The notes under the pieces: model-generated
The model's input: the letters and a program-made list of their open reading frames with translations, nothing else
What the model was told of the DNA's origin: nothing
Databases searched by the model: none
Sequence record: PV805631.1
Source of the DNA: a phage
Reading direction: 5' to 3' (one strand)
Length of the DNA: 64,000 nucleotides
Shown: positions 145 to 13,157 of the stretch, piece by piece
Position numbering within the stretch: position 1 is the first letter of the stretch
Layout: each line of letters opens with the position of its first letter
Made by a program: the position numbers and the translations under genes

Positions 145-468
145 ATGACTACTACCGCTACTGTACGTATGACCGCAGGAACTCTGCTGGGTACTGTTAA
201 CTCTGCTGCCACTACTGTGGCAGATTCATTCGGTGCTGCTACTAAAGCAGTTGGTATGCTTAATTCTTACGTAGCTACTATGGCAAAGAAACAAGCCATT
301 CGTACTAAATTAGAAATGCATACTTTCGAAAACAAATTAGCTGAAGAAACAGCTATGAACGAGACTCTTCGTAAGAAAAGTATCGAAGAATTCTGCAAAG
401 ATCCAGAAAACGCTCGTATCTATAACGCAGAATATTCAAGAATAATTGACATCCTGTCTAAAGACTAA
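145..468 (+). CDS. Hypothetical early protein (107 aa)
   Basis: ORF 52..468 trimmed to the ATG at 145, which has a GGAG 8 nt upstream and sits downstream of the hairpin at 89-101. Confidence 0.5.
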   Translation: MTTTATVRMTAGTLLGTVNSAATTVADSFGAATKAVGMLNSYVATMAKKQAIRTKLEMHTFENKLAEETAMNETLRKKSIEEFCKDPENARIYNAEYSRIIDILSKD

Positions 469-471
469 ATC

Positions 472-498
472 AATAGGAGGCTCTTCGAGCCTCCTATT
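472..498 (+). promoter_or_regulatory. Perfect 12-bp hairpin (AATAGGAGGCTC / GAGCCTCCTATT, 3-nt loop) just after the stop codon; no U-tract
   Basis: Inverted repeat read directly; stem contains an AGGAGG; related sequence reused in the terminator at 2621-2657. Confidence 0.4.
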
Positions 499-506
499 AA
501 GGGCAT

Positions 507-521
507 TAGATAGATAGATAG
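507..521. repeat. Short (TAGA)n microsatellite
   Basis: TAGATAGATAGATAG read directly. Confidence 0.6.
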
Positions 522-557
522 TCAGTTCTGTATAAAAAGATAGGAGAGATACCTACT

Positions 558-704
558 ATGAGCAAACTAAAAAACGCATTCATGCTGATTGTCAGTGTCC
601 TTGCACTTGTTGTTATGGTTTCCGTATACATTGGAAAACCTCTGGTAAACACTGACTATGGTAATGGTCAGAAAGTAAAATCCATCCTGCTAACGGATAA
701 GTAA
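558..704 (+). CDS. Small hydrophobic protein (48 aa), below the ORF-track cutoff
   Basis: ATG with AGGAGAG upstream; one predicted transmembrane helix (AFMLIVSVLALVVMVSVYIG). Confidence 0.3.
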   Translation: MSKLKNAFMLIVSVLALVVMVSVYIGKPLVNTDYGNGQKVKSILLTDK

Positions 705-767
705 AATGTCCCTGAATCTAAATCACCGTAAGAATCTCAGGATATCTTACATACCCTAAAAGACAAC

Positions 768-787
768 GACGCTCCGCGTCTTATGGA
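768..787 (+). promoter_or_regulatory. Candidate virion-RNAP early promoter hairpin (copy 2): GACGC-TCC-GCGTC followed by TTATGGA
   Basis: Same architecture as copy 1; about 100 nt upstream of the ATG at 889. Confidence 0.5.
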
Positions 788-888
788 TGATGTAAATGCA
801 TCCACTAATCATTGAAATTTTATCCTTTTGTTTGGGTGTTCTCACCGACGAGTTCACCCGTAAATCACATAAATCTGGAGAGTACAAA

Positions 889-1272
889 ATGTCTATTCAA
901 AAATTCACTTTCGGTCAATCTAACGCTGCTGCTACTTCTACTGCTAAAGCGGATAAACCTAAAGCTCAGTTCTGGCTGAACATTGGTTATGTAGCTAATG
1001 AAGGTTCCGATGATGAGAAATTCATCTCGCTGCCTACTGGTATTCCACTGGATACTCAGGAACCGCTGCCTACTAACAGCAGCAATGCTGACTTCCGTGC
1101 TATGCGTTGTGCACAGAACGATTTGTTGGAACAGTTAATTGAATATGCTCAGAACCTGAAACCAGGTGAAGAAGGTATCATTAACCTGCAAGTTCAACTT
1201 CGTCGTGTGAAAGCAGAGGCTGCTGACATCCCAGCAGACGAGAATAAATATGCTCGTAAACTGACTTTCTAA
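889..1272 (+). CDS. Hypothetical early protein (127 aa)
   Basis: ORF 796..1272 trimmed to the ATG at 889 with GGAGAG upstream; followed by a terminator. Confidence 0.5.
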
Positions 1273-1281
1273 TCAACAACT

Positions 1282-1310
1282 GGACTCCCTTCGGGGAGTC
1301 CTTTTATTTT
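1282..1310 (+). terminator. Intrinsic terminator (GGACTCCC-TTCG-GGGAGTCC + TTTTATTTT)
   Basis: 8-bp GC-rich stem, TTCG loop, U-tract. Confidence 0.7.
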
Positions 1311-1375
1311 AACTATGCGATAAACTAAGTAGAGTGTAATCCTACTTTTAGACGAAGAGAGACTAAGAGGTAAGT

Positions 1376-1870
1376 ATGAAGAAACCATATGGCTATTGGC
1401 AACAATCTGCTCACAATTTAGCCAAGATTCATGACCAATCTGATGCTCAGAGTAATGGGTACATATATGTAAAACATGATGGTAAAACCGTACTTTTACA
1501 TGTGTGGATTTGGGAGCAAATCAACGGTGCTATACCGGAAGGGTATGAGATAGACCATGAAAATGGTATCCGTTGGGACTGTAGGTTAAGCAACCTACGA
1601 TGCGTACCAAAGCTAATTAACCTAAGAAACTCAGCAAAACAAGCTAACAATACATCTGGTACTACTGGTGTAAGTATCATTACAGATAGGGGCAGAGAAT
1701 ATTGGATTGCTACATGGAGTGAGCCAGTTACAGGCAAGAAGAGAATGAAGCGCTTCAGTGTACAGAAGAATGGCTATGATACTGCTAAGCAGCTAGCCAT
1801 CAACTATCGTACAGAAGTTCTAAAAGATTTAATTAAAAATCATGACTATACAGAACGTCACGGTATGTGA
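1376..1870 (+). CDS. HNH homing endonuclease with AP2-like DNA-binding domain
   Basis: HNH_3-like motif (EIDHENG...NLR) plus AP2-like segment (NTSGTTGV...W); clear paralog of the ORF at 33131. Confidence 0.75.
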   Translation: MKKPYGYWQQSAHNLAKIHDQSDAQSNGYIYVKHDGKTVLLHVWIWEQINGAIPEGYEIDHENGIRWDCRLSNLRCVPKLINLRNSAKQANNTSGTTGVSIITDRGREYWIATWSEPVTGKKRMKRFSVQKNGYDTAKQLAINYRTEVLKDLIKNHDYTERHGM

Positions 1871-1947
1871 ATAGGGCTTTTCGACGAAGAGTCACTAAAA
1901 CTTAAACGTAAACAGAAGCAGATAACTTAGAGTAAGGAGTAATCAAG

Positions 1948-2133
1948 ATGCGTGTACTATGTAACCGTTATAATCCAGCAAAGTTAATCGACTTTATGGA
2001 ACCCATTGGTAGTCGTATGACTTATGCTGCTCGTTGGCAGGTATCCATAGCTGATAGTAGAGAACGTACTTATGACTACTTCTTTGTAGCTAAGCCTACT
2101 CGTAAACAAATCCGTAAACTTCACAAAGGATAA
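1948..2133 (+). CDS. Hypothetical protein (61 aa)
   Basis: ORF with AAGGAG upstream. Confidence 0.4.
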   Translation: MRVLCNRYNPAKLIDFMEPIGSRMTYAARWQVSIADSRERTYDYFFVAKPTRKQIRKLHKG

Positions 2134-2137
2134 TGCT

Positions 2138-2290
2138 ATGAAGCTACTGGCAGAGATTCTATGTATTTTATTAATGATACTGCTGGTAGCTGCATTTCCG
2201 TGGCTATTAGCCGTAGGTATAGTTATTGGTATGTTCCTAGCCAGAGCGAGTGATGCTCGTGGTAGGGATGAGCCAGGTGGAGATGTGTAA
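2138..2290 (+). CDS. Small membrane protein (50 aa), below the ORF-track cutoff
   Basis: ATG 8 nt after AAGGA; hydrophobic core LLMILLVAAFPWLLAVGIVIGMFLA. Confidence 0.3.
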   Translation: MKLLAEILCILLMILLVAAFPWLLAVGIVIGMFLARASDARGRDEPGGDV

Positions 2291-2322
2291 ACACTGCCGG
2301 AAGGGTATGTACGGAGGAACCA

Positions 2323-2496
2323 GTGATATTCACTAACATTGAAGATGCCATTGAAGAATGTATCTTCCGTAGATATCACACTGGAGTACAGAAACGACAC
2401 TATGGTGTTGTGCAACTCAATGGCTATCAAATGGCTGTAAGAATTGTACGTAACAATAAACCTTTTAACTTTATGTGGAGTACTAAACATGCGTAA
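2323..2496 (+). CDS. Hypothetical small protein (57 aa, GTG start)
   Basis: GGAGG 5 nt upstream of the GTG; open frame to TAA. Confidence 0.25.
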   Translation: MIFTNIEDAIEECIFRRYHTGVQKRHYGVVQLNGYQMAVRIVRNNKPFNFMWSTKHA

Positions 2497-3786: not shown

Positions 3787-4025
3787 TCTATGAAGAATAT
3801 TATGTATTCAAAAAAGGAAATGATTTTATAGCTATGCCCAATGATTACATGGATTGGCATACAACTCCTGTATTAAAAGAAGCATTTTCCGTACCTAACC
3901 TGGAAGAGGTTAATAAAGTAATGAACGGAGTAATGCTAACAAGAGGTATGGCTTACAAAATAGACGCATTAGAAGGAGCTTCTGTATGCAAAGTAACTAC
4001 ATCCATTGAGGTACTTAAACCATGA
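3783..4025 (+). CDS. Hypothetical protein (80 aa)
   Basis: ORF track; stop/start overlaps. Confidence 0.45.
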   Translation: MIYEEYYVFKKGNDFIAMPNDYMDWHTTPVLKEAFSVPNLEEVNKVMNGVMLTRGMAYKIDALEGASVCKVTTSIEVLKP

Positions 4026-4402
4026 AAGCTATCTCATTAGGTGATAACACCAATACTCTAATGGGTGAAACTGCTCGCTCAATTACTATTGTTAATAAAC
4101 ATCATGGTAAATCCGGTGAGTATATTGGGCGTGGCTCACCGTTAGGCAATCCATTCATCATTGGTAAACATGGAACCAGAGAGCAAGTAATTGCTAAGTA
4201 TAGAGTCTGGCTGCAAGAACAGATTGATAAAGGTAATCCAGCTGTACTGGATGAACTCAATCGTCTTGGTAATAAAGCCATTGACGAGAAAGGGCTGGCC
4301 TTACAGTGCTTCTGCTATCCCAAACCATGTCATGGTGAGGTTATTAAAGAGAAGCTCGTTCGGGCTATGTATAACTATTTTGTAGAAAATCCAAAAGGGT
4401 AA
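4022..4402 (+). CDS. DUF4326-like conserved phage protein
   Basis: YIGRGSPLGNPF motif and C-terminal C-x-C...C-H cluster recalled as typical of DUF4326; function unknown. Confidence 0.45.
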   Translation: MKAISLGDNTNTLMGETARSITIVNKHHGKSGEYIGRGSPLGNPFIIGKHGTREQVIAKYRVWLQEQIDKGNPAVLDELNRLGNKAIDEKGLALQCFCYPKPCHGEVIKEKLVRAMYNYFVENPKG

Positions 4403-4804: not shown

Positions 4805-5623
4805 ATGTACTCATCTATCGAACATCAGAAGCAACTCGAAGTACTATTCAATAAAAATCAGCTCCTGCCAAGGATGCGAAAAGAGTTCGAGGACTCCAAA
4901 GAAATTGACTTTAAGGCATTCGCTGCCTATTTGGAAATTGATTATAAACTGCTCATTGATGCAATGGTGCAGATTGCCCTACATAAACGTGCTGACATCC
5001 AGACTATGATTGGCTCTCTCATGAGTCACTCAGATGATGCTCAGTACATCGCTGACTGTCTGTATAAGATGGCAGAGAATGACTGCTTCAACTATGACCC
5101 TACCATCGACAAGTTCGGTGTTATCTATGAGATTAGTGAAGATGTTCAGATGGAACTGGAAGCATTCCAGTATCCATTACCTATCGTAAGTGCTCCTAAT
5201 CCTGTCAGAACTAACAGGGATACTGGTTACTACCAGACTAAGGGAAGCATTATCCTCAAGAAGAACCATCATGAGATGGATGTCTGCCTTGACCATATCA
5301 ACCGTATGAACAATCAACGTCTCTGTATTAACTGGGATGTTGCTAACTATGTAAAAGACTCTCGTCCTAATATGGATAAACCCAAAGAGGGTGAAACCCG
5401 TCAGGACTATGAGAAACGTGTTAAAGCCTTTGAGAAGTACAGTCGTACCGCTAAGGAAGTAATGGAGTTAGTGACTCAGGAAGGTAATAACTTCTCACTA
5501 GCGCATAAGTACGATAAGAGAGGGAGAACCTATGCCTGTGGATACCATATTAACTATGCTGGGACGTCCTACAACAAGGCAGTGGTTGAATTTGCAGACA
5601 AAGAACTAGTAAACGAGGATTAG
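4805..5623 (+). CDS. Phage RNA polymerase II small subunit (N4 RNAP1-like)
   Basis: About 270 aa gene directly upstream of the catalytic subunit; assigned by synteny with the N4 two-subunit enzyme, no motif confirmed. Confidence 0.5.
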   Translation: MYSSIEHQKQLEVLFNKNQLLPRMRKEFEDSKEIDFKAFAAYLEIDYKLLIDAMVQIALHKRADIQTMIGSLMSHSDDAQYIADCLYKMAENDCFNYDPTIDKFGVIYEISEDVQMELEAFQYPLPIVSAPNPVRTNRDTGYYQTKGSIILKKNHHEMDVCLDHINRMNNQRLCINWDVANYVKDSRPNMDKPKEGETRQDYEKRVKAFEKYSRTAKEVMELVTQEGNNFSLAHKYDKRGRTYACGYHINYAGTSYNKAVVEFADKELVNED

Positions 5624-5624
5624 T

Positions 5625-6206
5625 ATGAAGACATGTTCAGTATGTAAGAAGAACTTGCCTCTGGACATGTTCAATAAACAGTCCACAGGTAAGCAAGGTG
5701 TAAGGGCAGACTGTAAAGACTGCCTTAAACGATTTATCCGTTCAAAACACGGAGTCATTAATCAGATGTACTCCGGTTGTATCAGTAGAACTAAGAAGAA
5801 GGGGTTTACTCCTGTATCTTTCACAAAGGAGGAACTAGAGAAATGGGTGTATTCAAGTAAAGAATTTCACGAATTATATGATGAATGGGTATCGAAAGAT
5901 TACCCAACTAACCTAAAGCCGAGCTTAGATCGGTTGGATGATTATAAAGGTTATTCACTGGACAACATTCGTATTGTTACAGCGAATACCAACGTAAAAA
6001 GGTACTACTCTGATGCAATCAATGGTATCAACACCAAATCAGCTAAGCCTGTTGAGCAGTATTCACTAGATGGTAAATACATTAAGACGTTCCATTCACT
6101 TAGTGCTGCTGCACGAAGTGTTAAGGGTATACCCTCTAATATTAATCAAGTAATTAACGGTACATATGCGCAAGCATATGGCTATAAGTGGAAACTAGGA
6201 GCCTAA
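5625..6206 (+). CDS. Diverged HNH-like homing endonuclease candidate between the RNAP subunit genes
   Basis: N-terminal CxxC...CxxC; DRLDD...NIRIVTANTN aligns with the HNH_3 motif of the other HNH ORFs but has Arg where they have the first His. Confidence 0.45.
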   Translation: MKTCSVCKKNLPLDMFNKQSTGKQGVRADCKDCLKRFIRSKHGVINQMYSGCISRTKKKGFTPVSFTKEELEKWVYSSKEFHELYDEWVSKDYPTNLKPSLDRLDDYKGYSLDNIRIVTANTNVKRYYSDAINGINTKSAKPVEQYSLDGKYIKTFHSLSAAARSVKGIPSNINQVINGTYAQAYGYKWKLGA

Positions 6207-6207
6207 G

Positions 6208-7425
6208 ATGCAGATTTTCACAGCTAAAGAATATTTAAAAATTGATATTGCCAATTCTTACGGGCTGGATAAGAAGACATGGGATGAGCGTATTAGCTGG
6301 TTCGATGAGAATGAAGCTAACCTGCTTAATCTGGTAGATGAAGCTGAAGAATCCGCACTGTTCTATGCTGGCGTAAACGCATGGAAAGACATGAAAGCCG
6401 GTAAACCTATCGGTTATGCCGTAGCTCTGGATGCTACATCATCTGGTTTGCAGTTACTGGCTTGCCTGACTGGTGACCGTTCTGCTGCTGAACTATGTAA
6501 CGTAGTTAACTACATGGGTGAGAACGGTAAGCCATTACGTCGTGATGCTTATACAGTTATCTATCACAAGATGCTGGACATCCTTGGTGAATCATCCCGT
6601 ATTAAACGTAGTGATACTAAGCAGGCAGTTATGACTGCGTTCTATGGTTCAGAAGCTAAGCCTAAAGAAGTATTCGGTGAAGGTATTCGTCTCAAGACTT
6701 TTGAGAATGTAATGGAAACAGTTGCTAGTGGACCTTGGGCACTGAACAAGTTCTTACTGCAATGTGGTAACCCGGATGCTAACCGTTACGTATGGGTACT
6801 GCCTGACAACTTCCATGCTGTCATTAAGGTCATGGTTCCAGAAGTACAGACCGTTAACTTCTTAGGTAAGCCATTCGACATCACCCGTATGGTACAGGGT
6901 ACTGAAGATAAGACTCGTATGCTCTCTGCTAACATCACTCACTCTATTGATGGGATGGTGGTACGTGAAATGCTGCGTCGTTGTAACTTCAACATGAACC
7001 AGGTGAACTATGTTAAGTCCCTCTGTGAAGGAACCAGTGAGTATATGCTGGGTACTAGCGGGAACTACGACATGGTTAGTCAACTGTGGCATAACTATGA
7101 GAAATCAGGATTCCTGTCTACCCGTATCTTTGATTATCTGGATTCTGACTCAATTAAACTGGTTGATACAGATGTAATCATGGCTATGATTAATACTATG
7201 CCTAAGAAACCATTCCCTGTAATGACTGTACATGACTGCTTCCGTTGTCATCCTAACTACGGTAATGATCTGCGTCGTCAGTACAATCAGATTCTGTCTG
7301 ACATTGCTAAGAGTGATCTACTGGGCTTCATCCTGTCTCAGGTACTGGGACAAGAGTTCTCTGCTGGTAAGCTGGATGACAGCCTCTGGCAGGACATCCT
7401 TGAAACAGACTATGCGTTAAGTTAA
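6208..7425 (+). CDS. Phage RNA polymerase II catalytic subunit (N4 RNAP2-like, T7-family)
   Basis: T7-RNAP-like motif A (LDATSSGLQLLA), motif B (RSDTKQAVMTAFYGS) and motif C (VHDCF). Confidence 0.8.
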   Translation: MQIFTAKEYLKIDIANSYGLDKKTWDERISWFDENEANLLNLVDEAEESALFYAGVNAWKDMKAGKPIGYAVALDATSSGLQLLACLTGDRSAAELCNVVNYMGENGKPLRRDAYTVIYHKMLDILGESSRIKRSDTKQAVMTAFYGSEAKPKEVFGEGIRLKTFENVMETVASGPWALNKFLLQCGNPDANRYVWVLPDNFHAVIKVMVPEVQTVNFLGKPFDITRMVQGTEDKTRMLSANITHSIDGMVVREMLRRCNFNMNQVNYVKSLCEGTSEYMLGTSGNYDMVSQLWHNYEKSGFLSTRIFDYLDSDSIKLVDTDVIMAMINTMPKKPFPVMTVHDCFRCHPNYGNDLRRQYNQILSDIAKSDLLGFILSQVLGQEFSAGKLDDSLWQDILETDYALS

Positions 7426-8856: not shown

Positions 8857-9038
8857 AACTAACCCAGTCCCAAGCAATTTTCCTTCGCATGGTTCAAGGT
8901 GGTTCTGCCACCAGCAACCGTAATAACAAAACCGCACAGTCTCTTAAGAAGCTGGGCTTAGTACAGTTCAATGCTGGTCTTGGGTGGTCATTAACCCCTA
9001 CCGGTGTACTTCAACTCAACGAATTAAAAGGTAACTAA
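8853..9038 (+). CDS. Hypothetical small protein (61 aa)
   Basis: ORF track; stop/start overlap. Confidence 0.35.
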   Translation: MKLTQSQAIFLRMVQGGSATSNRNNKTAQSLKKLGLVQFNAGLGWSLTPTGVLQLNELKGN

Positions 9039-9365
9039 ATGAAAACTTTAATTGCTGTTGTTCTAGTAGCTCTATCAGTTCTGTCATTCGGTGCTCAAGC
9101 ATCTAGTCGTGCAACCTTGTTGGAATCTGCTGCTGATTACAAAGCTAATAATGCAAACTTTGTGAATCAAGGTTACTTCATGGGCATGGTTACTATGGGT
9201 GTGGAAGCAGGAAAGAATTGTGTACCTGACGGTATAAAATTAGGGCACATTTTTGACAGAGTGGCATCTATTATTCTGTATGACCGAAAGGTTAATGCAG
9301 TAAAAGTACCATCAGACATGGTTCTGTTAGCGATTAATACAGCCTATCCCTGCGTTAAATCTTAA
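9039..9365 (+). CDS. Secreted/periplasmic protein with N-terminal signal peptide (108 aa)
   Basis: MKTLIAVVLVALSVLSFGAQA-SS signal-peptide pattern; two Cys in the mature part. Confidence 0.5.
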   Translation: MKTLIAVVLVALSVLSFGAQASSRATLLESAADYKANNANFVNQGYFMGMVTMGVEAGKNCVPDGIKLGHIFDRVASIILYDRKVNAVKVPSDMVLLAINTAYPCVKS

Positions 9366-9399
9366 TTAGTAATTCCATTAACTTTAGGAGAGTAAGTAA

Positions 9400-10452
9400 A
9401 TGGCGAGCATTGACTCCTTGACTGTATGTAATACACGCCAAGCCCGTAACTTTATTATCCGTGCCTTGCAAGCAGGTAACGTACCGTTCCTGACTTCATC
9501 ACCAGGTATGGGTAAGTCTGCAATTATTCGTTCTATTGCAGAAGAATTTGGTATGAAGCTGATTGACCATCGTCTGTCTACTTCTGCCCCGGAAGACTTA
9601 TCTGGTCTACCATTCCGTAATGGTGACCGTGCAGAGTTTATTCCATTTGCTGACTTATTCCCTATCGAGGGTGACAAAGTACCGGATGGTTATAATGGCT
9701 GGCTCCTGTTCCTTGATGAGTTCAACTCAGCTAAGAAAGAAGTAGTGGCTGCTGCATACAAACTAATTCTCGACCGCATGACCGGACAGAAAAAACTTCA
9801 CCCTAATGTGATGATTATCTGTGCCGGTAACAAAGCTACTGACCGAGCCATAGTTAACCCACTGGGTACTGCAATGCAGTCTCGTGTTGTCCACTTCGAA
9901 ATGGAACTCGACTTCGACATCTTTGTTGAAGACGTAATGATTCCACAAGAATGGGATGAGCGTCTGGTTGCATTCTTACATGCTAACCCTGGTTATCTGC
10001 ATGACTTCGACCCCGCACATAAGAATAAAACATTCTGTTGCCCACGTACCTGGGACTTTGTTAACAAAGACCTCAAGAACCGACCAGAAGGTGCTTTGCC
10101 TGATGAAGATTCTATCTACTATGCAGGCCACGTTACTGCTGGTAAAGCTACAGAGTTTGTTCAGTTCACTCAGGTATACAATCGTATGATTACGATTGAG
10201 AAGGTAGTAAAAGACCCGTTAGGCTGTGCACTACCGGAAGATAATAACCTGTGTTGGGCTACTGTTAACCATCTGGCTAACAAAACTACTGAAGATAACT
10301 TCGCTGATGTTCTTCAGTACATTGAACGCTTTAAAACGTTCACCCATAAGATTCTGTACTTCCGTACAGTAGGAAAAGCATTACCAGAAATTCAGGCTAC
10401 CCCTGAATGGCGTAAGGCTGCTGCCAATATCTCTCGTTACATTCACGGATAA
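9400..10452 (+). CDS. AAA+ ATPase (MoxR-like)
   Basis: Walker A SPGMGKS and Walker B LLFLDEF. Confidence 0.75.
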   Translation: MASIDSLTVCNTRQARNFIIRALQAGNVPFLTSSPGMGKSAIIRSIAEEFGMKLIDHRLSTSAPEDLSGLPFRNGDRAEFIPFADLFPIEGDKVPDGYNGWLLFLDEFNSAKKEVVAAAYKLILDRMTGQKKLHPNVMIICAGNKATDRAIVNPLGTAMQSRVVHFEMELDFDIFVEDVMIPQEWDERLVAFLHANPGYLHDFDPAHKNKTFCCPRTWDFVNKDLKNRPEGALPDEDSIYYAGHVTAGKATEFVQFTQVYNRMITIEKVVKDPLGCALPEDNNLCWATVNHLANKTTEDNFADVLQYIERFKTFTHKILYFRTVGKALPEIQATPEWRKAAANISRYIHG

Positions 10453-10455
10453 ACT

Positions 10456-10932
10456 ATGAACTGGCATGAACTATTTGTTTATAGCAATGGTTCCCTTTAC
10501 TGGAAAGTAAGTAGGGGCTGCGTAAAAGCAGGTGCCATTGCTGGTTGTTTGGATAACAGCGGGTATTTGCGTGTTAAATGTAATAGAAAAAATCATTTAG
10601 TTCACCGCATAATTTATGAAATGGAAATTGGTCCAATTCCTGATGGTATGCAGGTAGACCATATTGACCACAATAGGCTAAATAATTACCCAAGTAATTT
10701 CCGTTTAGTAACAAACATGGTTAATAGTAAAAACCAAACCATGAGAGTAACAAATACATCAGGTGTGACAGGAGTATACTGGCACACTCGGGATAAAATT
10801 TGGACTGCCCATATAAATGACAATGGTAAACAAATTTACTTAGGAAAATTTAACAGTAAACAAGAAGCCATTTCAGCCAGAAAGGAAGCAGAAAAATTAT
10901 TGGGCTACCATATAAATCATGGGGAACCCTAA
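10456..10932 (+). CDS. HNH homing endonuclease with AP2-like domain
   Basis: QVDHIDHNRLNN...NFRLVT motif plus NTSGVTGVYW AP2-like segment; lies between the ATPase and vWA genes. Confidence 0.7.
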   Translation: MNWHELFVYSNGSLYWKVSRGCVKAGAIAGCLDNSGYLRVKCNRKNHLVHRIIYEMEIGPIPDGMQVDHIDHNRLNNYPSNFRLVTNMVNSKNQTMRVTNTSGVTGVYWHTRDKIWTAHINDNGKQIYLGKFNSKQEAISARKEAEKLLGYHINHGEP

Positions 10933-12107
10933 TGAATAGTATACCTACGCATACTCTCACTGATGAACGGTTAATGAGGGAGTACGATAGAATACAAGCG
11001 CAGGCATTTCTCGGACGTAGTGCAGCGTTTTTTGGTTCATTGCTGTGTAGTCTTAAGTTCTCATGGAAACGTGAGGGCTGTCCCACTGCATGTACCGACG
11101 GGATAGAACTCCATTTCAACCCAGACTTCTTTATCTGGATGTGTCCTGATGCAAGGGAAACAGTGCTAATGCACGAACTTTGGCATGTGGCATATCTGCA
11201 TGGAATCCGTTGTGGAAGCCGTGATCCAGAAGTCTGGAACCAGGCATGTGACCACTTCATTAACCTTCAGTTAGAGGAAGATGGTTACAAGTTCACTGGT
11301 ATCGACAAAGGCATTTGCAAAGACCCTCAATATAAAGGATGGGTCGAAGAAGACATCTACGATGACCTGATGAAGAACCCTCAGAAAAGGCAGAAGCCGT
11401 CGGGGGGAGCTGGAGCAGGTCTTGCTGGCGACATGAAAGCTCCCTCTTCGGGGCAGTCCCAGGGTGCTGTTGTCAACAACGTAGTACGTGCAATACAAAG
11501 CCAGAAGATGGCTGGTGGAACGATGCCCGGTAAAGGTGCTGGTCGTATGGAAGAGGTTATTACCCAATTCCTTAAACCAGTGGTTCCGTGGCAGGAAGTC
11601 CTGATGAACTTCTTTACCGACATTGATGATACGCATTATACGTGGGCCAGACCCAACCGTCGTTTCACTGACGTCTATCTACCTTCTCTGGAAGATGATG
11701 AAGGACGTTTACGACACTTAGCCTATTTTGAGGATGTATCCGGTTCTATTAGTAGTGCTGACTCTCTGCGTTTTAACTCAGAGGTTGCCTACGTTAAGAG
11801 CCAGTTCAATCCTAAGAAGATGACCCTAATTACCTTCGACGATATTATCCAAGAAGAAATAGACATCACTGAAGAAGATACTTTTGAAGAGATTAAGATT
11901 ACTGGACGAGGGGGTACAAACCTTGAACCAGTGCGTGAATGGATTATTAAGAATAAGCCAACCGCTGCAATCATATTCTCTGATATGTATGTTCGCCCTA
12001 TGGAAGATTTACCATTTGATATTCCTATCATCTGGTGTGTTCTGAATAATCCTAATGCTACCGTACCTTTTGGGGAGGTAGTTCATATCCCTAAAGGAAT
12101 GAAATAA
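10932..12107 (+). CDS. vWA-type protein with N-terminal metallopeptidase-like domain
   Basis: HELWH (HExxH) motif in the N-terminal half; partner position to the AAA+ ATPase. Confidence 0.5.
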   Translation: MNSIPTHTLTDERLMREYDRIQAQAFLGRSAAFFGSLLCSLKFSWKREGCPTACTDGIELHFNPDFFIWMCPDARETVLMHELWHVAYLHGIRCGSRDPEVWNQACDHFINLQLEEDGYKFTGIDKGICKDPQYKGWVEEDIYDDLMKNPQKRQKPSGGAGAGLAGDMKAPSSGQSQGAVVNNVVRAIQSQKMAGGTMPGKGAGRMEEVITQFLKPVVPWQEVLMNFFTDIDDTHYTWARPNRRFTDVYLPSLEDDEGRLRHLAYFEDVSGSISSADSLRFNSEVAYVKSQFNPKKMTLITFDDIIQEEIDITEEDTFEEIKITGRGGTNLEPVREWIIKNKPTAAIIFSDMYVRPMEDLPFDIPIIWCVLNNPNATVPFGEVVHIPKGMK

Positions 12108-12613
12108 TGATTGTTAATGGTAATTCTCTATACCGTTCATCTCAATTGCTGGATGTCCCAGACCGTAAGGTATCCGAGCATGGTGTAAGCTATGGATTAG
12201 GTGAAGCTGGTTATGATATTCGTATCAAACAAGACATTACCTTCTATCGCTTATTTGGGTTAATTCCAATGGTGAAAATCGTCGATGGAAAACAAGTATC
12301 ACGCCATCTCGGTAAATTCGCATTAGCTTCAGCAATTGAGAAGTTCAACATGTCACCCTCGTGTGTAGCTATCGTTCACGATAAGTCCACATGGGCAAGA
12401 CGTGCATTATCTGTGTTCAATACCGTAATAGAACCAGGATGGAAAGGGTATCTTACCCTTGAACTGGTCTATCACGGTCGTAAGAAACTGCATATCCCGG
12501 CTGGTGCTGGGATAGCTCAAGTATTATTTCATCTGGTTCAAGAGCCTGCTAATTACAACGGCAAGTATCAGAATCAGGAGGACAAACCAGTAGCTGCAAG
12601 AAGCAGTAAATAA
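12107..12613 (+). CDS. dCTP deaminase-like protein (dUTPase superfamily)
   Basis: IEPGWKGYLTLEL resembles the dCTP-deaminase/dUTPase signature. Confidence 0.55.
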   Translation: MIVNGNSLYRSSQLLDVPDRKVSEHGVSYGLGEAGYDIRIKQDITFYRLFGLIPMVKIVDGKQVSRHLGKFALASAIEKFNMSPSCVAIVHDKSTWARRALSVFNTVIEPGWKGYLTLELVYHGRKKLHIPAGAGIAQVLFHLVQEPANYNGKYQNQEDKPVAARSSK

Positions 12614-12622
12614 GGAAACAAC

Positions 12623-12823
12623 ATGTCTGTATTTCAAGTAACTCCTGTTGATAGTACCCAACGTAAAACTATTGTTGCAACTAATGTAGTAGATGTAGAT
12701 GAAACCCCAGCTGGTGCTGTAATCCATCTGATTGATGGGCGAACTGTAACTGTAAAAGAAAGCTATCGTTCAGTACGTGGTTACGTCCGTAAAGCTTTAG
12801 CTGCTGTCTCTGATGCAGAGTAA
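12623..12823 (+). CDS. Hypothetical protein (66 aa)
   Basis: ORF track; ATG start with purine-rich GGAAAC upstream. Confidence 0.4.
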   Translation: MSVFQVTPVDSTQRKTIVATNVVDVDETPAGAVIHLIDGRTVTVKESYRSVRGYVRKALAAVSDAE

Positions 12824-12896
12824 GTAGCTGCCTAAATAGCCCAACTATGCTGGGCTATTTGTGAAGAAACTAACTCAACCTCACATAGGAACCATC

Positions 12897-13157
12897 ATGG
12901 AATCTTTAGCAGCAATCCTCGTTCTGTTATTTGCACTTGCTATATACCTTATCCCTACTATTATTGCTTTTGCACGAGGCCATGCCTCTAAGTGGGGCAT
13001 TGGTATACTCAATATCGTATTAGGCTGGTCTTTAGTCTTCTGGGTAGTAGCACTGATTTGGTCACTGTCTAACAAAGGGCAGTCTCAGACTACAATCGTT
13101 AACGTTGGCAGTGGTAACCAGTACAACGTGTCTCAAACGAGCCAGTCTGATAAGTAA
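12897..13157 (+). CDS. Superinfection-immunity (Imm-like) membrane protein candidate
   Basis: Two TM helices and YLIPTIIAFARGH...GWSLVFWVVALIWSL, resembling the Imm_superinfect family from memory; ATG at 12897 has AGGAA upstream. Confidence 0.45.
   Translation: MESLAAILVLLFALAIYLIPTIIAFARGHASKWGIGILNIVLGWSLVFWVVALIWSLSNKGQSQTTIVNVGSGNQYNVSQTSQSDK

Follow-up and report, generated by a model that had tools for sequence, protein, structure and literature searches.

A free-standing HNH-AP2 gene, probably a homing endonuclease gene, between genes 24 and 25 of Escherichia phage G7C and some of its Gamaleyavirus relatives

In the 64,000 nucleotides of phage DNA analysed here (sequence record PV805631.1; this whole stretch is called the window), an open reading frame for a protein with HNH and AP2 domains stands between the gene for an AAA+ ATPase and that for a VWA-like protein. 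A preliminary description made from the sequence had taken this arrangement as a selfish insertion into a conserved junction, and had suggested comparing the junction in related phages. The question is whether the gene entered the junction by homing, arrived there by ordinary recombination, is an old resident lost elsewhere, or is kept for some service to the phage. Over positions 9000..12700 the window shows 100% identity to Escherichia phage vB_EcoP_G7C (HQ259105 / NC_015933), an N4-like phage of the Schitoviridae (Gamaleyavirus), and a window coordinate equals the coordinate in the G7C record minus 461. The genes are referred to by their G7C designations, gp24, gp24.1 and gp25, and their features are collected in Table 1.

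Table 1. Features of the gp24-gp24.1-gp25 region in window coordinates.
Feature	Coordinates	Strand	Basis
gp24, AAA+ ATPase, left flank	9400..10452	+	Pfam AAA 2.4e-6, PHROG 1297 4.5e-134
Spacer ACT, 3 nt, gp24 stop to nuclease start	10453..10455	+	read from sequence
gp24.1, free-standing HNH_3 + AP2 gene, probable homing endonuclease, 158 aa	10456..10932	+	Pfam, PHROG, model
HNH_3 nuclease core, residues 48-91	10597..10728	+	Pfam
D68/H69 codons	10657-10662	+	phmmer alignment to 1U3E
N81 codon	10696-10698	+	phmmer alignment to 1U3E
N90 codon	10723-10725	+	phmmer alignment to 1U3E
AP2-type DNA-binding domain, residues ~102-149	10759..10902	+	Pfam AP2, DSSP, Foldseek
Translation hand-over to gp25, GGGGA run + TAATG	10921..10934	+	sequence; ribosome-binding role presumed
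gp25 first 66 nt, insert-linked haplotype	10932..10997	+	junction comparison among Gamaleyavirus
gp25, DUF2201_N (putative metallopeptidase) + DUF2201 (VWA-like), right flank	10932..12107	+	Pfam 1.3e-54, 2.9e-34

The reading frame exists between the two flanking genes as the preliminary description had it, with Pfam and PHROG matches and a predicted fold in agreement. It begins with ATG 3 nt past the gp24 stop codon, and the last base of its TAA (10930-10932) is also the first of the gp25 ATG (10932-10934), so that the reported TAATG overlap is indeed seen at 10930-10934. The GC content of gp24.1 is 36.5%, compared with 43.7 ± 2.8% for the window, and falls in the lowest 0.9% of 477-nt windows; the composition of the gene is foreign to the window. 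In the deposited G7C record gp24.1 is annotated as 'putative HNH homing endonuclease; similar to EndZ of phage TLS', an annotation that the preliminary description had missed. This annotation, and the variable presence of the gene tabulated in a preprint (10.1101/542787), are already known, and gp24.1 is a member of a well-known kind, not a new kind of element. What is added here is a defined insertion site, a recoded gp25 allele linked to the insert, and several deep nuclease lineages at one site.

The HNH_3 model (PF13392) matches residues 48-91 of gp24.1 with E=9.2e-18 and 64.1 bits against a cut-off of 24.8, and the protein falls into PHROG 99 'HNH endonuclease' with E=2.6e-63; given these two matches, the reading frame is far beyond chance. 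The AP2 match (PF00847; E=6.5e-7) scores 30.0 bits, slightly below the cut-off of 33.3, and the domain was confirmed by the predicted fold. Among solved structures the best sequence match is I-HmuI (1U3E; phmmer 7.4e-5), and in the phmmer alignment D68/H69, N81 and N90 of gp24.1 correspond to D74/H75, N87 and N96 of I-HmuI. In the work of Shen and co-workers in 2004 these I-HmuI residues are said to act as the D-H general base, the structural N and the metal N, respectively. An alignment of gp24.1 with 48 homologues (49 sequences) shows H69, N77 and N81 to be invariant and D68 and N90 to be at least 90% conserved. The AlphaFold2 model built on the same alignment has a pLDDT of 92.2, and a Foldseek comparison with the PDB once more places I-HmuI 1U3E first (E=1.3e-4, prob 1.00, TM 0.45/0.42, 166 aligned columns), the overall TM of 0.45 being low because the arrangement of the domains differs. 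According to DSSP, the C-terminal part of the model consists of strands at 107-110, 115-122 and 125-132 and a helix at 135-149, i.e. a three-stranded sheet followed by a helix, which in Foldseek matches the plant AP2/ERF domains 7ET5, 7WQ5 and 1GCC (rmsd 1.3 A to 7ET5; TM 0.71, target-normalised, to 1GCC). As judged by profile, alignment and model, gp24.1 is an HNH_3 / I-HmuI-like His-Me finger endonuclease with a beta-beta-alpha-metal fold and putative cleavage activity.

The nicking 'HNN' enzymes I-HmuI, I-HmuII, I-BasI and I-TwoI of Bacillus and Staphylococcus phages thus provide the best match to gp24.1 in both sequence and fold, and with I-HmuI it shares an N-terminal beta-rich region and, behind it, the beta-beta-alpha-metal core in which the D-H, N and N residues align. 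These enzymes differ in being encoded in group I introns and ending in a helix-turn-helix, whereas gp24.1 is free-standing and ends in AP2. An enzyme encoded by a group I intron was considered for the G7C locus and rejected, since carriers and non-carriers alike have gp24 and gp25 as two distinct, complete genes, and no intron or RNA family was found with Rfam at E<=1 in 9000..12700.

To establish the distribution of the gene, a 1200-nt query composed of both flanks without the insert was run against 50,697 phage records, and the junctions were then read. An insert of 451-486 nt is present in 10 of 41 Gamaleyavirus phages, namely G7C, UE-M3, UE-M6, UE-S5a, UE-S5b, Mimir124, PD38, Bp4, Uz-1 and Moonfish. 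It is absent in the remaining 31, in which gp24 and gp25 are joined by a ~7-nt spacer, TCACAAC or variants, directly followed by the gp25 ATG (SP5M, F22, PhAPEC5, PhAPEC7, E20, CU10EC, ST4, St11Ph5, K57alpha1.2, U1G, AN24P2, IME11, KKP 3715, Bas96, pSb-1, PGN829.1, ECBP1, PBM-2, PBM-3, PD205, VTCCBPA_322, ShWW44, 24-32N, phi G17, HK2, nithesis, ZQ2, EC1-UPM, PE007, PW8 and NAN33P5). The junction is empty too in the more distant relatives Moo19 and Jgk1, which served as outgroups, and a contiguous empty junction covering at least 80% of the query occurs in 48 records. Further copies of the nuclease gene occupy the same junction in two metagenome contigs with Gamaleyavirus-like backbones (L024; also L031 and L032). 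A protein scan of IMG/VR with gp24.1 returned G7C itself and two distant homologues (37-39%) and did not extend the census. NAN33P5 was initially a candidate carrier and was rejected, as the 872 additional bases of this phage are located within gp24, with no insert between gp24 and gp25. Inserts within gp24 are also seen in U1G and pSb-1, and no Rfam family was found at the gathering threshold in the gp24-internal inserts of these three phages.

The preliminary description had further treated the flanking genes as a normally adjacent MoxR-like ATPase and vWA pair. The adjacency stands: gp24 and gp25 adjoin in the 31 empty genomes and in the outgroups, and this pairing fits the literature on MoxR-class AAA+ proteins and their VWA partners (PMC9976466, PMC13036017). 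The MoxR part is less secure, as gp24 has no match to the AAA_3/MoxR model in Pfam. It matches AAA above threshold (28.4 bits) and AAA_5 below threshold, midasin is its best PDB sequence match, and no NCBIfam match was obtained for gp24, gp24.1 or gp25. The MoxR-like label for gp24 is plausible.

The nuclease copies at the junction show 56-94% amino acid identity to that of G7C, and the backbones are ~94% identical. The genes of the UE phages (94% aa, 92% nt), Mimir124 (77% aa, 74% nt) and PD38 (58-60% aa) are intact, those of Bp4 and Uz-1 (56% aa) have a 1-nt frameshift, and that of Moonfish (60% aa) has a ~35-nt deletion and a frameshift with loss of AP2; the Moonfish copy is decayed. The nuclease genes differ by 8-39% in nucleotide sequence with saturated synonymous sites (pS 0.75-0.82), and the flanks have dS values of 0.16-0.44. 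For instance, the nuclease genes of G7C and Mimir124 are 26% different (pS 0.755, saturated), as against ~5% for the flanks (dS 0.16-0.23). Between G7C and UE-M6 the dS of the nuclease gene is 0.37, similar to that of the flanks, and this pair therefore looks vertically inherited. The dN/dS of 0.095 for the same pair, together with the conserved catalytic residues, points to purifying selection on gp24.1 with retention of function, and an active enzyme is predicted.

A copy in Logan contig L025 is located at the same junction and is 76% (nt) and 81% (aa) identical to that of G7C, with gp25 only 71% identical. PD38 and Mimir124, although of the same genus as G7C, thus have nuclease genes more distant from that of G7C than is the L025 copy, which comes from a different genus-level lineage. 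The next homologues, at ~50% aa identity, are found in T1-like and Klebsiella siphophages in unrelated contexts. Altogether, at least four deep nuclease lineages share the same base-precise site across two genus-level groups. When flank relatives were judged on the last 600 nt of gp24, gp25 nt 91-1176 and dcd, the nearest one was insert-free for all five independent carrier lineages: NAN33P5 for G7C, Mimir124 and Moonfish, U1G for UE-M6, and pSb-1 for PD38 and Bp4. The carriers are likewise scattered in neighbour-joining trees of gp24 and of gp25 nt 91-1176, although these trees have no support values and are blurred by recombination. These comparisons support lateral spread of the gp24.1-type insert among Gamaleyavirus. 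In the junction comparison proposed beforehand, then, the relatives do not all carry the gene, and the divergence of the nuclease does not track that of the flanks.

Uz-1 and Bp4 have the same sequence across the nuclease gene and 35 nt of gp25, with flanks diverged on both sides. This would be striking evidence of a very recent cassette transfer, but it was rejected as such, given that the record length of 72,583 and the frameshifts are common to both phages; these features make a reference-guided assembly likely, and the carrier status of Uz-1 may be an artefact.

The beginning of gp25 differs according to the presence of the insert. Over gp25 nt 1-66, the mean divergence between carriers and non-carriers is 32.1% against a background of 6.4%, that among non-carriers 3.7% against 6.6%, and that among carriers 13.3% against 6.3%. 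The empty junction is therefore more conserved than the background, as expected of a homing site. G7C and PhAPEC7 differ at 22 of the 66 bases (binomial P≈1e-11), and the carrier allele generally at 20-22. Ten differences are fixed between carriers and non-carriers, at gp25 nt 7, 9, 17, 21, 24, 29, 39, 42, 46 and 48 (window positions 10938, 10940, 10948, 10952, 10955, 10960, 10970, 10973, 10977 and 10979), and no fixed difference was found in the last 600 nt of gp24 or the other ~1.6 kb compared (~2.2 kb in total). Identity to G7C over the first ~60 nt is 0.85-0.92 for carriers and 0.66-0.67 for non-carriers, and from nt ~61 onward the two groups are indistinguishable. The recoding is mostly synonymous, with switches of codon family (CGT to AGG/AGA, CTC to TTA), and the amino acid is altered in 4 of 22 codons. 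Since Moo19 and Jgk1 have the non-carrier haplotype, that of the carriers is derived. Among the 50,697 phage records the 66-nt carrier haplotype occurs in exactly 12, all of which carry the insert, and its diagnostic 22-mer occurs in two metagenome contigs, both with the nuclease gene. This recoding, which the preliminary description had overlooked, is the strongest evidence on the locus, rather than the TAATG overlap.

As the variant segment lies wholly downstream of the insert and is not split by it, the recognition or cleavage site would fall within gp25 nt ~1-60, and the recoded allele would be resistant. The recoded gp25 start is accordingly put forward as a candidate cleavage-resistant version of the homing site. 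The carriers form a single group in the neighbour-joining tree of gp25 nt 1-66, and this tree disagrees with that of the nuclease gene: the G7C haplotype is nearest those of Moonfish and PD38, and the G7C nuclease gene is nearest that of UE-M6. A simple, matched allele-specific immunity was rejected because of this disagreement. In contig L025 the bases next to the insert are of the non-carrier type and the distal Arg codons of the carrier type, which, with the disagreement of the trees, suggests that recombination took place later or that selection acts on certain positions. It could also be that the recoded 66 nt are donor DNA, a fossil co-conversion tract and not an immunity determinant, and they would still be a signature of homing.

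Donor sequence is also what the 66 nt would represent if the insert had been brought in by ordinary homologous or illegitimate recombination, as one more mosaic module exchange in which the nuclease has no role. Many small module swaps are on record for G7C-like phages (10.1101/542787), and the incongruent haplotype and nuclease-gene trees suit this explanation. However, mere exchange does not account for purifying selection on a nuclease gene with intact catalytic residues, or for at least four deep lineages at one base-precise site in two genus-level groups. Moreover, the codon families are switched and the Gamaleyavirus protein sequence is nearly unchanged, unlike what a distant donor gp25 would bring, and the N-terminus of N4 gp25 is very different. 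Mosaic exchange is hence considered unlikely.

The haplotype bears as well on the possibility that the gene is ancestral to Gamaleyavirus and was lost repeatedly, G7C being a case of retention. Loss is part of homing endonuclease cycles, decay is seen in Moonfish, and the state of phage 10Gb, a close relative of G7C, is listed as 'ORF 24.1 deletion' in the 2019 preprint on G7C-like horse phages (10.1101/542787, Table S1). Nevertheless, the outgroups are empty and have the non-carrier gp25 haplotype, all 31 empty sites combine the same clean ~7-nt junction with the ancestral haplotype, a state that could not be regained by deletion alone, and the carriers are polyphyletic on their flanks. Ancestral presence is highly improbable on these grounds.

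The borders of the insert indicate how it is fitted between its neighbours. In PD38, Bp4 and Mimir124 the ancestral spacer is kept and 'ATGAAC' is the start of the nuclease gene, and gp25 begins again with ATGAA[C/T] downstream of the insert, so that the place of insertion can be narrowed down no further than to this 6-nt repeat. All Gamaleyavirus copies have ...CATGG(A/G)G(C/A)A... as their last codons, followed by TAATG, and the intact copies other than that of G7C end ...CATGGAGCAYCYTAATG. A GGAG/GGGGA run is located 6-9 nt ahead of the gp25 ATG, in G7C inside the last nuclease codons, and presumably serves as the ribosome-binding site for gp25. By this reading of the sequence, gp24.1 takes over the old initiation region of gp25 and gives gp25 a new one. 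Sigma-70-like sites occur at chance level (8 found, 8.3 expected in 9000..13000, N4-type promoters being outside the scan), and no terminator was found between the three genes or elsewhere in 9000..13000. With neither an excess of promoters nor a terminator nor an RNA family, gp24.1 appears to ride inside the operon.

Thus, gp24.1 is most probably a homing endonuclease gene that stands free of any intron and has spread by intronless homing; its product would be an HNH enzyme of the I-HmuI-like ('HNN') class that ends in an AP2 domain. As judged by genome comparison, the locus bears the hallmarks of such genes known from the seg and mob genes of T4 (references in PMC10448857), i.e. a sporadic, base-precise distribution, phylogenetic incongruence, purifying selection with occasional decay, a conserved target and a carrier-specific flank. 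The proposal of a selfish insertion into a conserved junction is supported in this respect by the 31 of 41 empty sites and the outgroups, by the divergence of the inserts and by the recoded gp25. In a mixed infection, the DNA of an insert-free Gamaleyavirus would be nicked or cut by gp24.1, either in the conserved 5' end of gp25 or at the gp24/gp25 junction, and repair off the carrier genome would bring in the nuclease gene along with ~60 nt of gp25 in recoded form. This allele, encoding almost the same protein, would shield the carrier from its own enzyme. The cost to the phage would be low, as the nuclease gene would use the old gp25 start region (ATGAAC...), its last codons would supply gp25 with a new ribosome-binding site and the TAATG overlap, and it would be expressed in the operon without a promoter or terminator of its own. 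No report of cleavage, nicking or homing by gp24.1 or any N4-like HNH-AP2 gene was found in the literature.

Alternatively, gp24.1 might be domesticated, as an AP2-type regulator or as a nuclease for replication, host DNA degradation or competition, and be maintained by benefit and not by drive. Strong purifying selection would be expected to accompany such a role, site-specific repression by AP2 domains is on record for other phage proteins (10.64898/2026.02.23.707548), and four HNH-AP2 paralogues are kept in the G7C window. Yet 31 of 41 close relatives, and phage 10Gb as well, do without the gene, and the Moonfish copy has been allowed to decay. The link to a recoded neighbour is predicted by homing and is unneeded for a regulator. 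Domestication is accordingly judged quite unlikely, more so than mosaic exchange.

If homing is accepted, an extension may be considered tentatively, namely that in Gamaleyavirus and neighbouring genera the gp24/gp25 junction has long been contested by several deeply diverged HNH-AP2 alleles, which would vie for one conserved site in the manner of I-HmuI and I-HmuII in SPO1 and SP82. Each would cut rival phages at co-infection, and the gene would serve as a weapon of interference competition that skews the inheritance of the replication-gene block. The recoded gp25 start would then be the footprint of an arms race, a reading suggested by the 13% divergence among carriers at the gp25 start against a 6% background. 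This extension is possible but doubtful.

The combination of HNH and AP2 domains is recognised as a homing endonuclease family of phages, cyanobacteria and protists (PMC10448857 citing Magnani et al. 2004; PMC2248197). Its members in the Xanthomonas phages Xp10, OP1 and Xop411 (PMC2248197), EndZ of TLS and T1-like homologues have the same two-domain architecture; they too are free-standing, occur in multiple copies and vary in presence between phage genomes, some of them being truncated or decayed. For the Xanthomonas phage genes no conserved flanking sequence was found, and their transfer was regarded as sequence-independent (PMC2248197); gp24.1 differs in its base-precise site and its link to a specific recoded flank. 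In these latter features it resembles SegF, SegG and MobE of T4 (references in PMC10448857), which are free-standing between conserved genes, have their target in the neighbour, differ in the carrier allele at the target and co-convert adjacent markers. The Seg enzymes are of the GIY-YIG type, however, and the T4 Mob enzymes lack AP2. For the T4 systems homing, marker exclusion and cleavage sites have been measured, whereas the case for gp24.1 is comparative inference throughout. Its apparent co-converted tract is also unusually short and one-sided, with ~60 nt downstream and none upstream, unlike those of T4. A further likeness is to the 'IPA-HNH' genes of ICP1, HNH + AP2 genes in lytic phages at boundaries of identity change (Barth, Dunham & Seed 2023, PMC10448857). 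The ICP1 proteins are too divergent for the Pfam HNH_3 model (PMC10448857), whereas gp24.1 is a canonical HNH_3 protein.

The comparison bears out the deposited annotation, and beyond the T-even phages the gp24/gp25 junction may serve as a textbook example, by comparative evidence, of intronless homing. Its insertion site is base-precise, a stretch of 60 nt is the candidate target, with a putatively resistant allele, and natural carrier and non-carrier phages lend themselves to a direct test. The host of the non-carrier St11Ph5 is E. coli 4s, presumably the host of G7C as well, and if this common host holds, the two phages form a ready experimental pair. In the engineering of N4-like therapeutic phages and in cocktails, co-infection could move gp24.1 together with adjacent gp25 markers. 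Homologues of gp25 are themselves commonly misnamed 'HNH endonuclease' in sequence records.

Among relatives of phage G7C in which gp24 and gp25 meet at an empty junction, i.e. without the free-standing nuclease gene gp24.1, the junction together with nucleotides 1–66 of gp25 (corresponding to window positions 10932..10997) is unusually conserved. In five phages, this stretch is 100% identical over 93 nt, while the same phages are ~6% different elsewhere, and divergence of the junction and gp25 nt 1–66 to other genera is 13% versus 22%. Such conservation may reflect a constraint in addition to protein coding, for example on translation initiation or coupling.

In phage Bas96, nt 54–66 of gp25 are similar to those of the recoded, insert-linked haplotype of Mimir124, yet the Bas96 junction is empty. 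The gene block that contains gp24/gp25 has another variable site for a nuclease gene, occupied in Bas96 by an HNH endonuclease ORF (see table). In phage N4, gp24 is separated from gp25 by 167 nt; therefore, the pair is not strictly abutting in all N4-like phages.

The Uz-1 (L023) and Bp4 (L008) records are both 72,583 bp in length, and their copies of gp24, the nuclease gene and gp25 carry identical frameshifts. Over the nuclease gene and a further 35 nt, the two records match exactly, whereas the flanks are ~5% different. The identical length, shared frameshifts and exact match over the nuclease gene suggest that Uz-1 was assembled by a reference-guided approach, which filled in sequence that may be absent from this phage.

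The gp24 gene is itself split in U1G, pSb-1 and NAN33P5 by a ~0.9-kb insert, which encodes another HNH endonuclease. No group I intron was found in these three inserts using Rfam at the gathering threshold.

Related features in the G7C window and in other phages
Feature	Phage or locus	Coordinates	Remarks
HNH_3 + AP2 ORF (ORF 2.1)	G7C	1376..1870	
HNH_3 + AP2 ORF	G7C	26617..27114	
HNH_3 + AP2 ORF	G7C	33131..33628	
ORF	G7C	27111..28091	weak PD-(D/E)XK match
ORF	G7C	5625..6206	between ORF 4805..5623 and RNA polymerase-domain gene 6208..7425
Insert within gp24	U1G (L014)	1486..2426	annotated 'Phage intron'
Insert within gp24	pSb-1 (L018)	about 386..1426	
Insert within gp24	NAN33P5 (L006)	upstream of 2556	
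HNH endonuclease ORF	Bas96 (L019)	3793..4207	directly after dCTP deaminase gene
Unannotated 70-aa ORF	N4 (L022)	1951..2163	in gp24–gp25 gap
gp25 homologue	L009	2108..3283	named 'HNH endonuclease'
gp25 homologue	L021	165..1307	named 'HNH endonuclease'

The G7C window includes three other HNH_3 + AP2 ORFs, which encode products of 164–165 aa that are 30–37% identical to gp24.1. The stop of the second overlaps the start of the ORF that follows it. ORF 2.1 is tabulated as a deletion in phage 10Gb (10.1101/542787), and the ORF at 5625..6206 is likewise tabulated as deleted there (10.1101/542787). The latter is separated by 1 nt from each of its neighbours, and a placement between partners is common to this ORF and gp24.1.

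Many RefSeq records, as well as PHROG 1314, give homologues of gp25 (10932..12107 in the window) the name 'HNH endonuclease'. A Pfam search of gp25 matched DUF2201_N and DUF2201 only, and an HNH domain was not found. The label is probably a propagated misnomer, possibly originating from adjacent nuclease genes.
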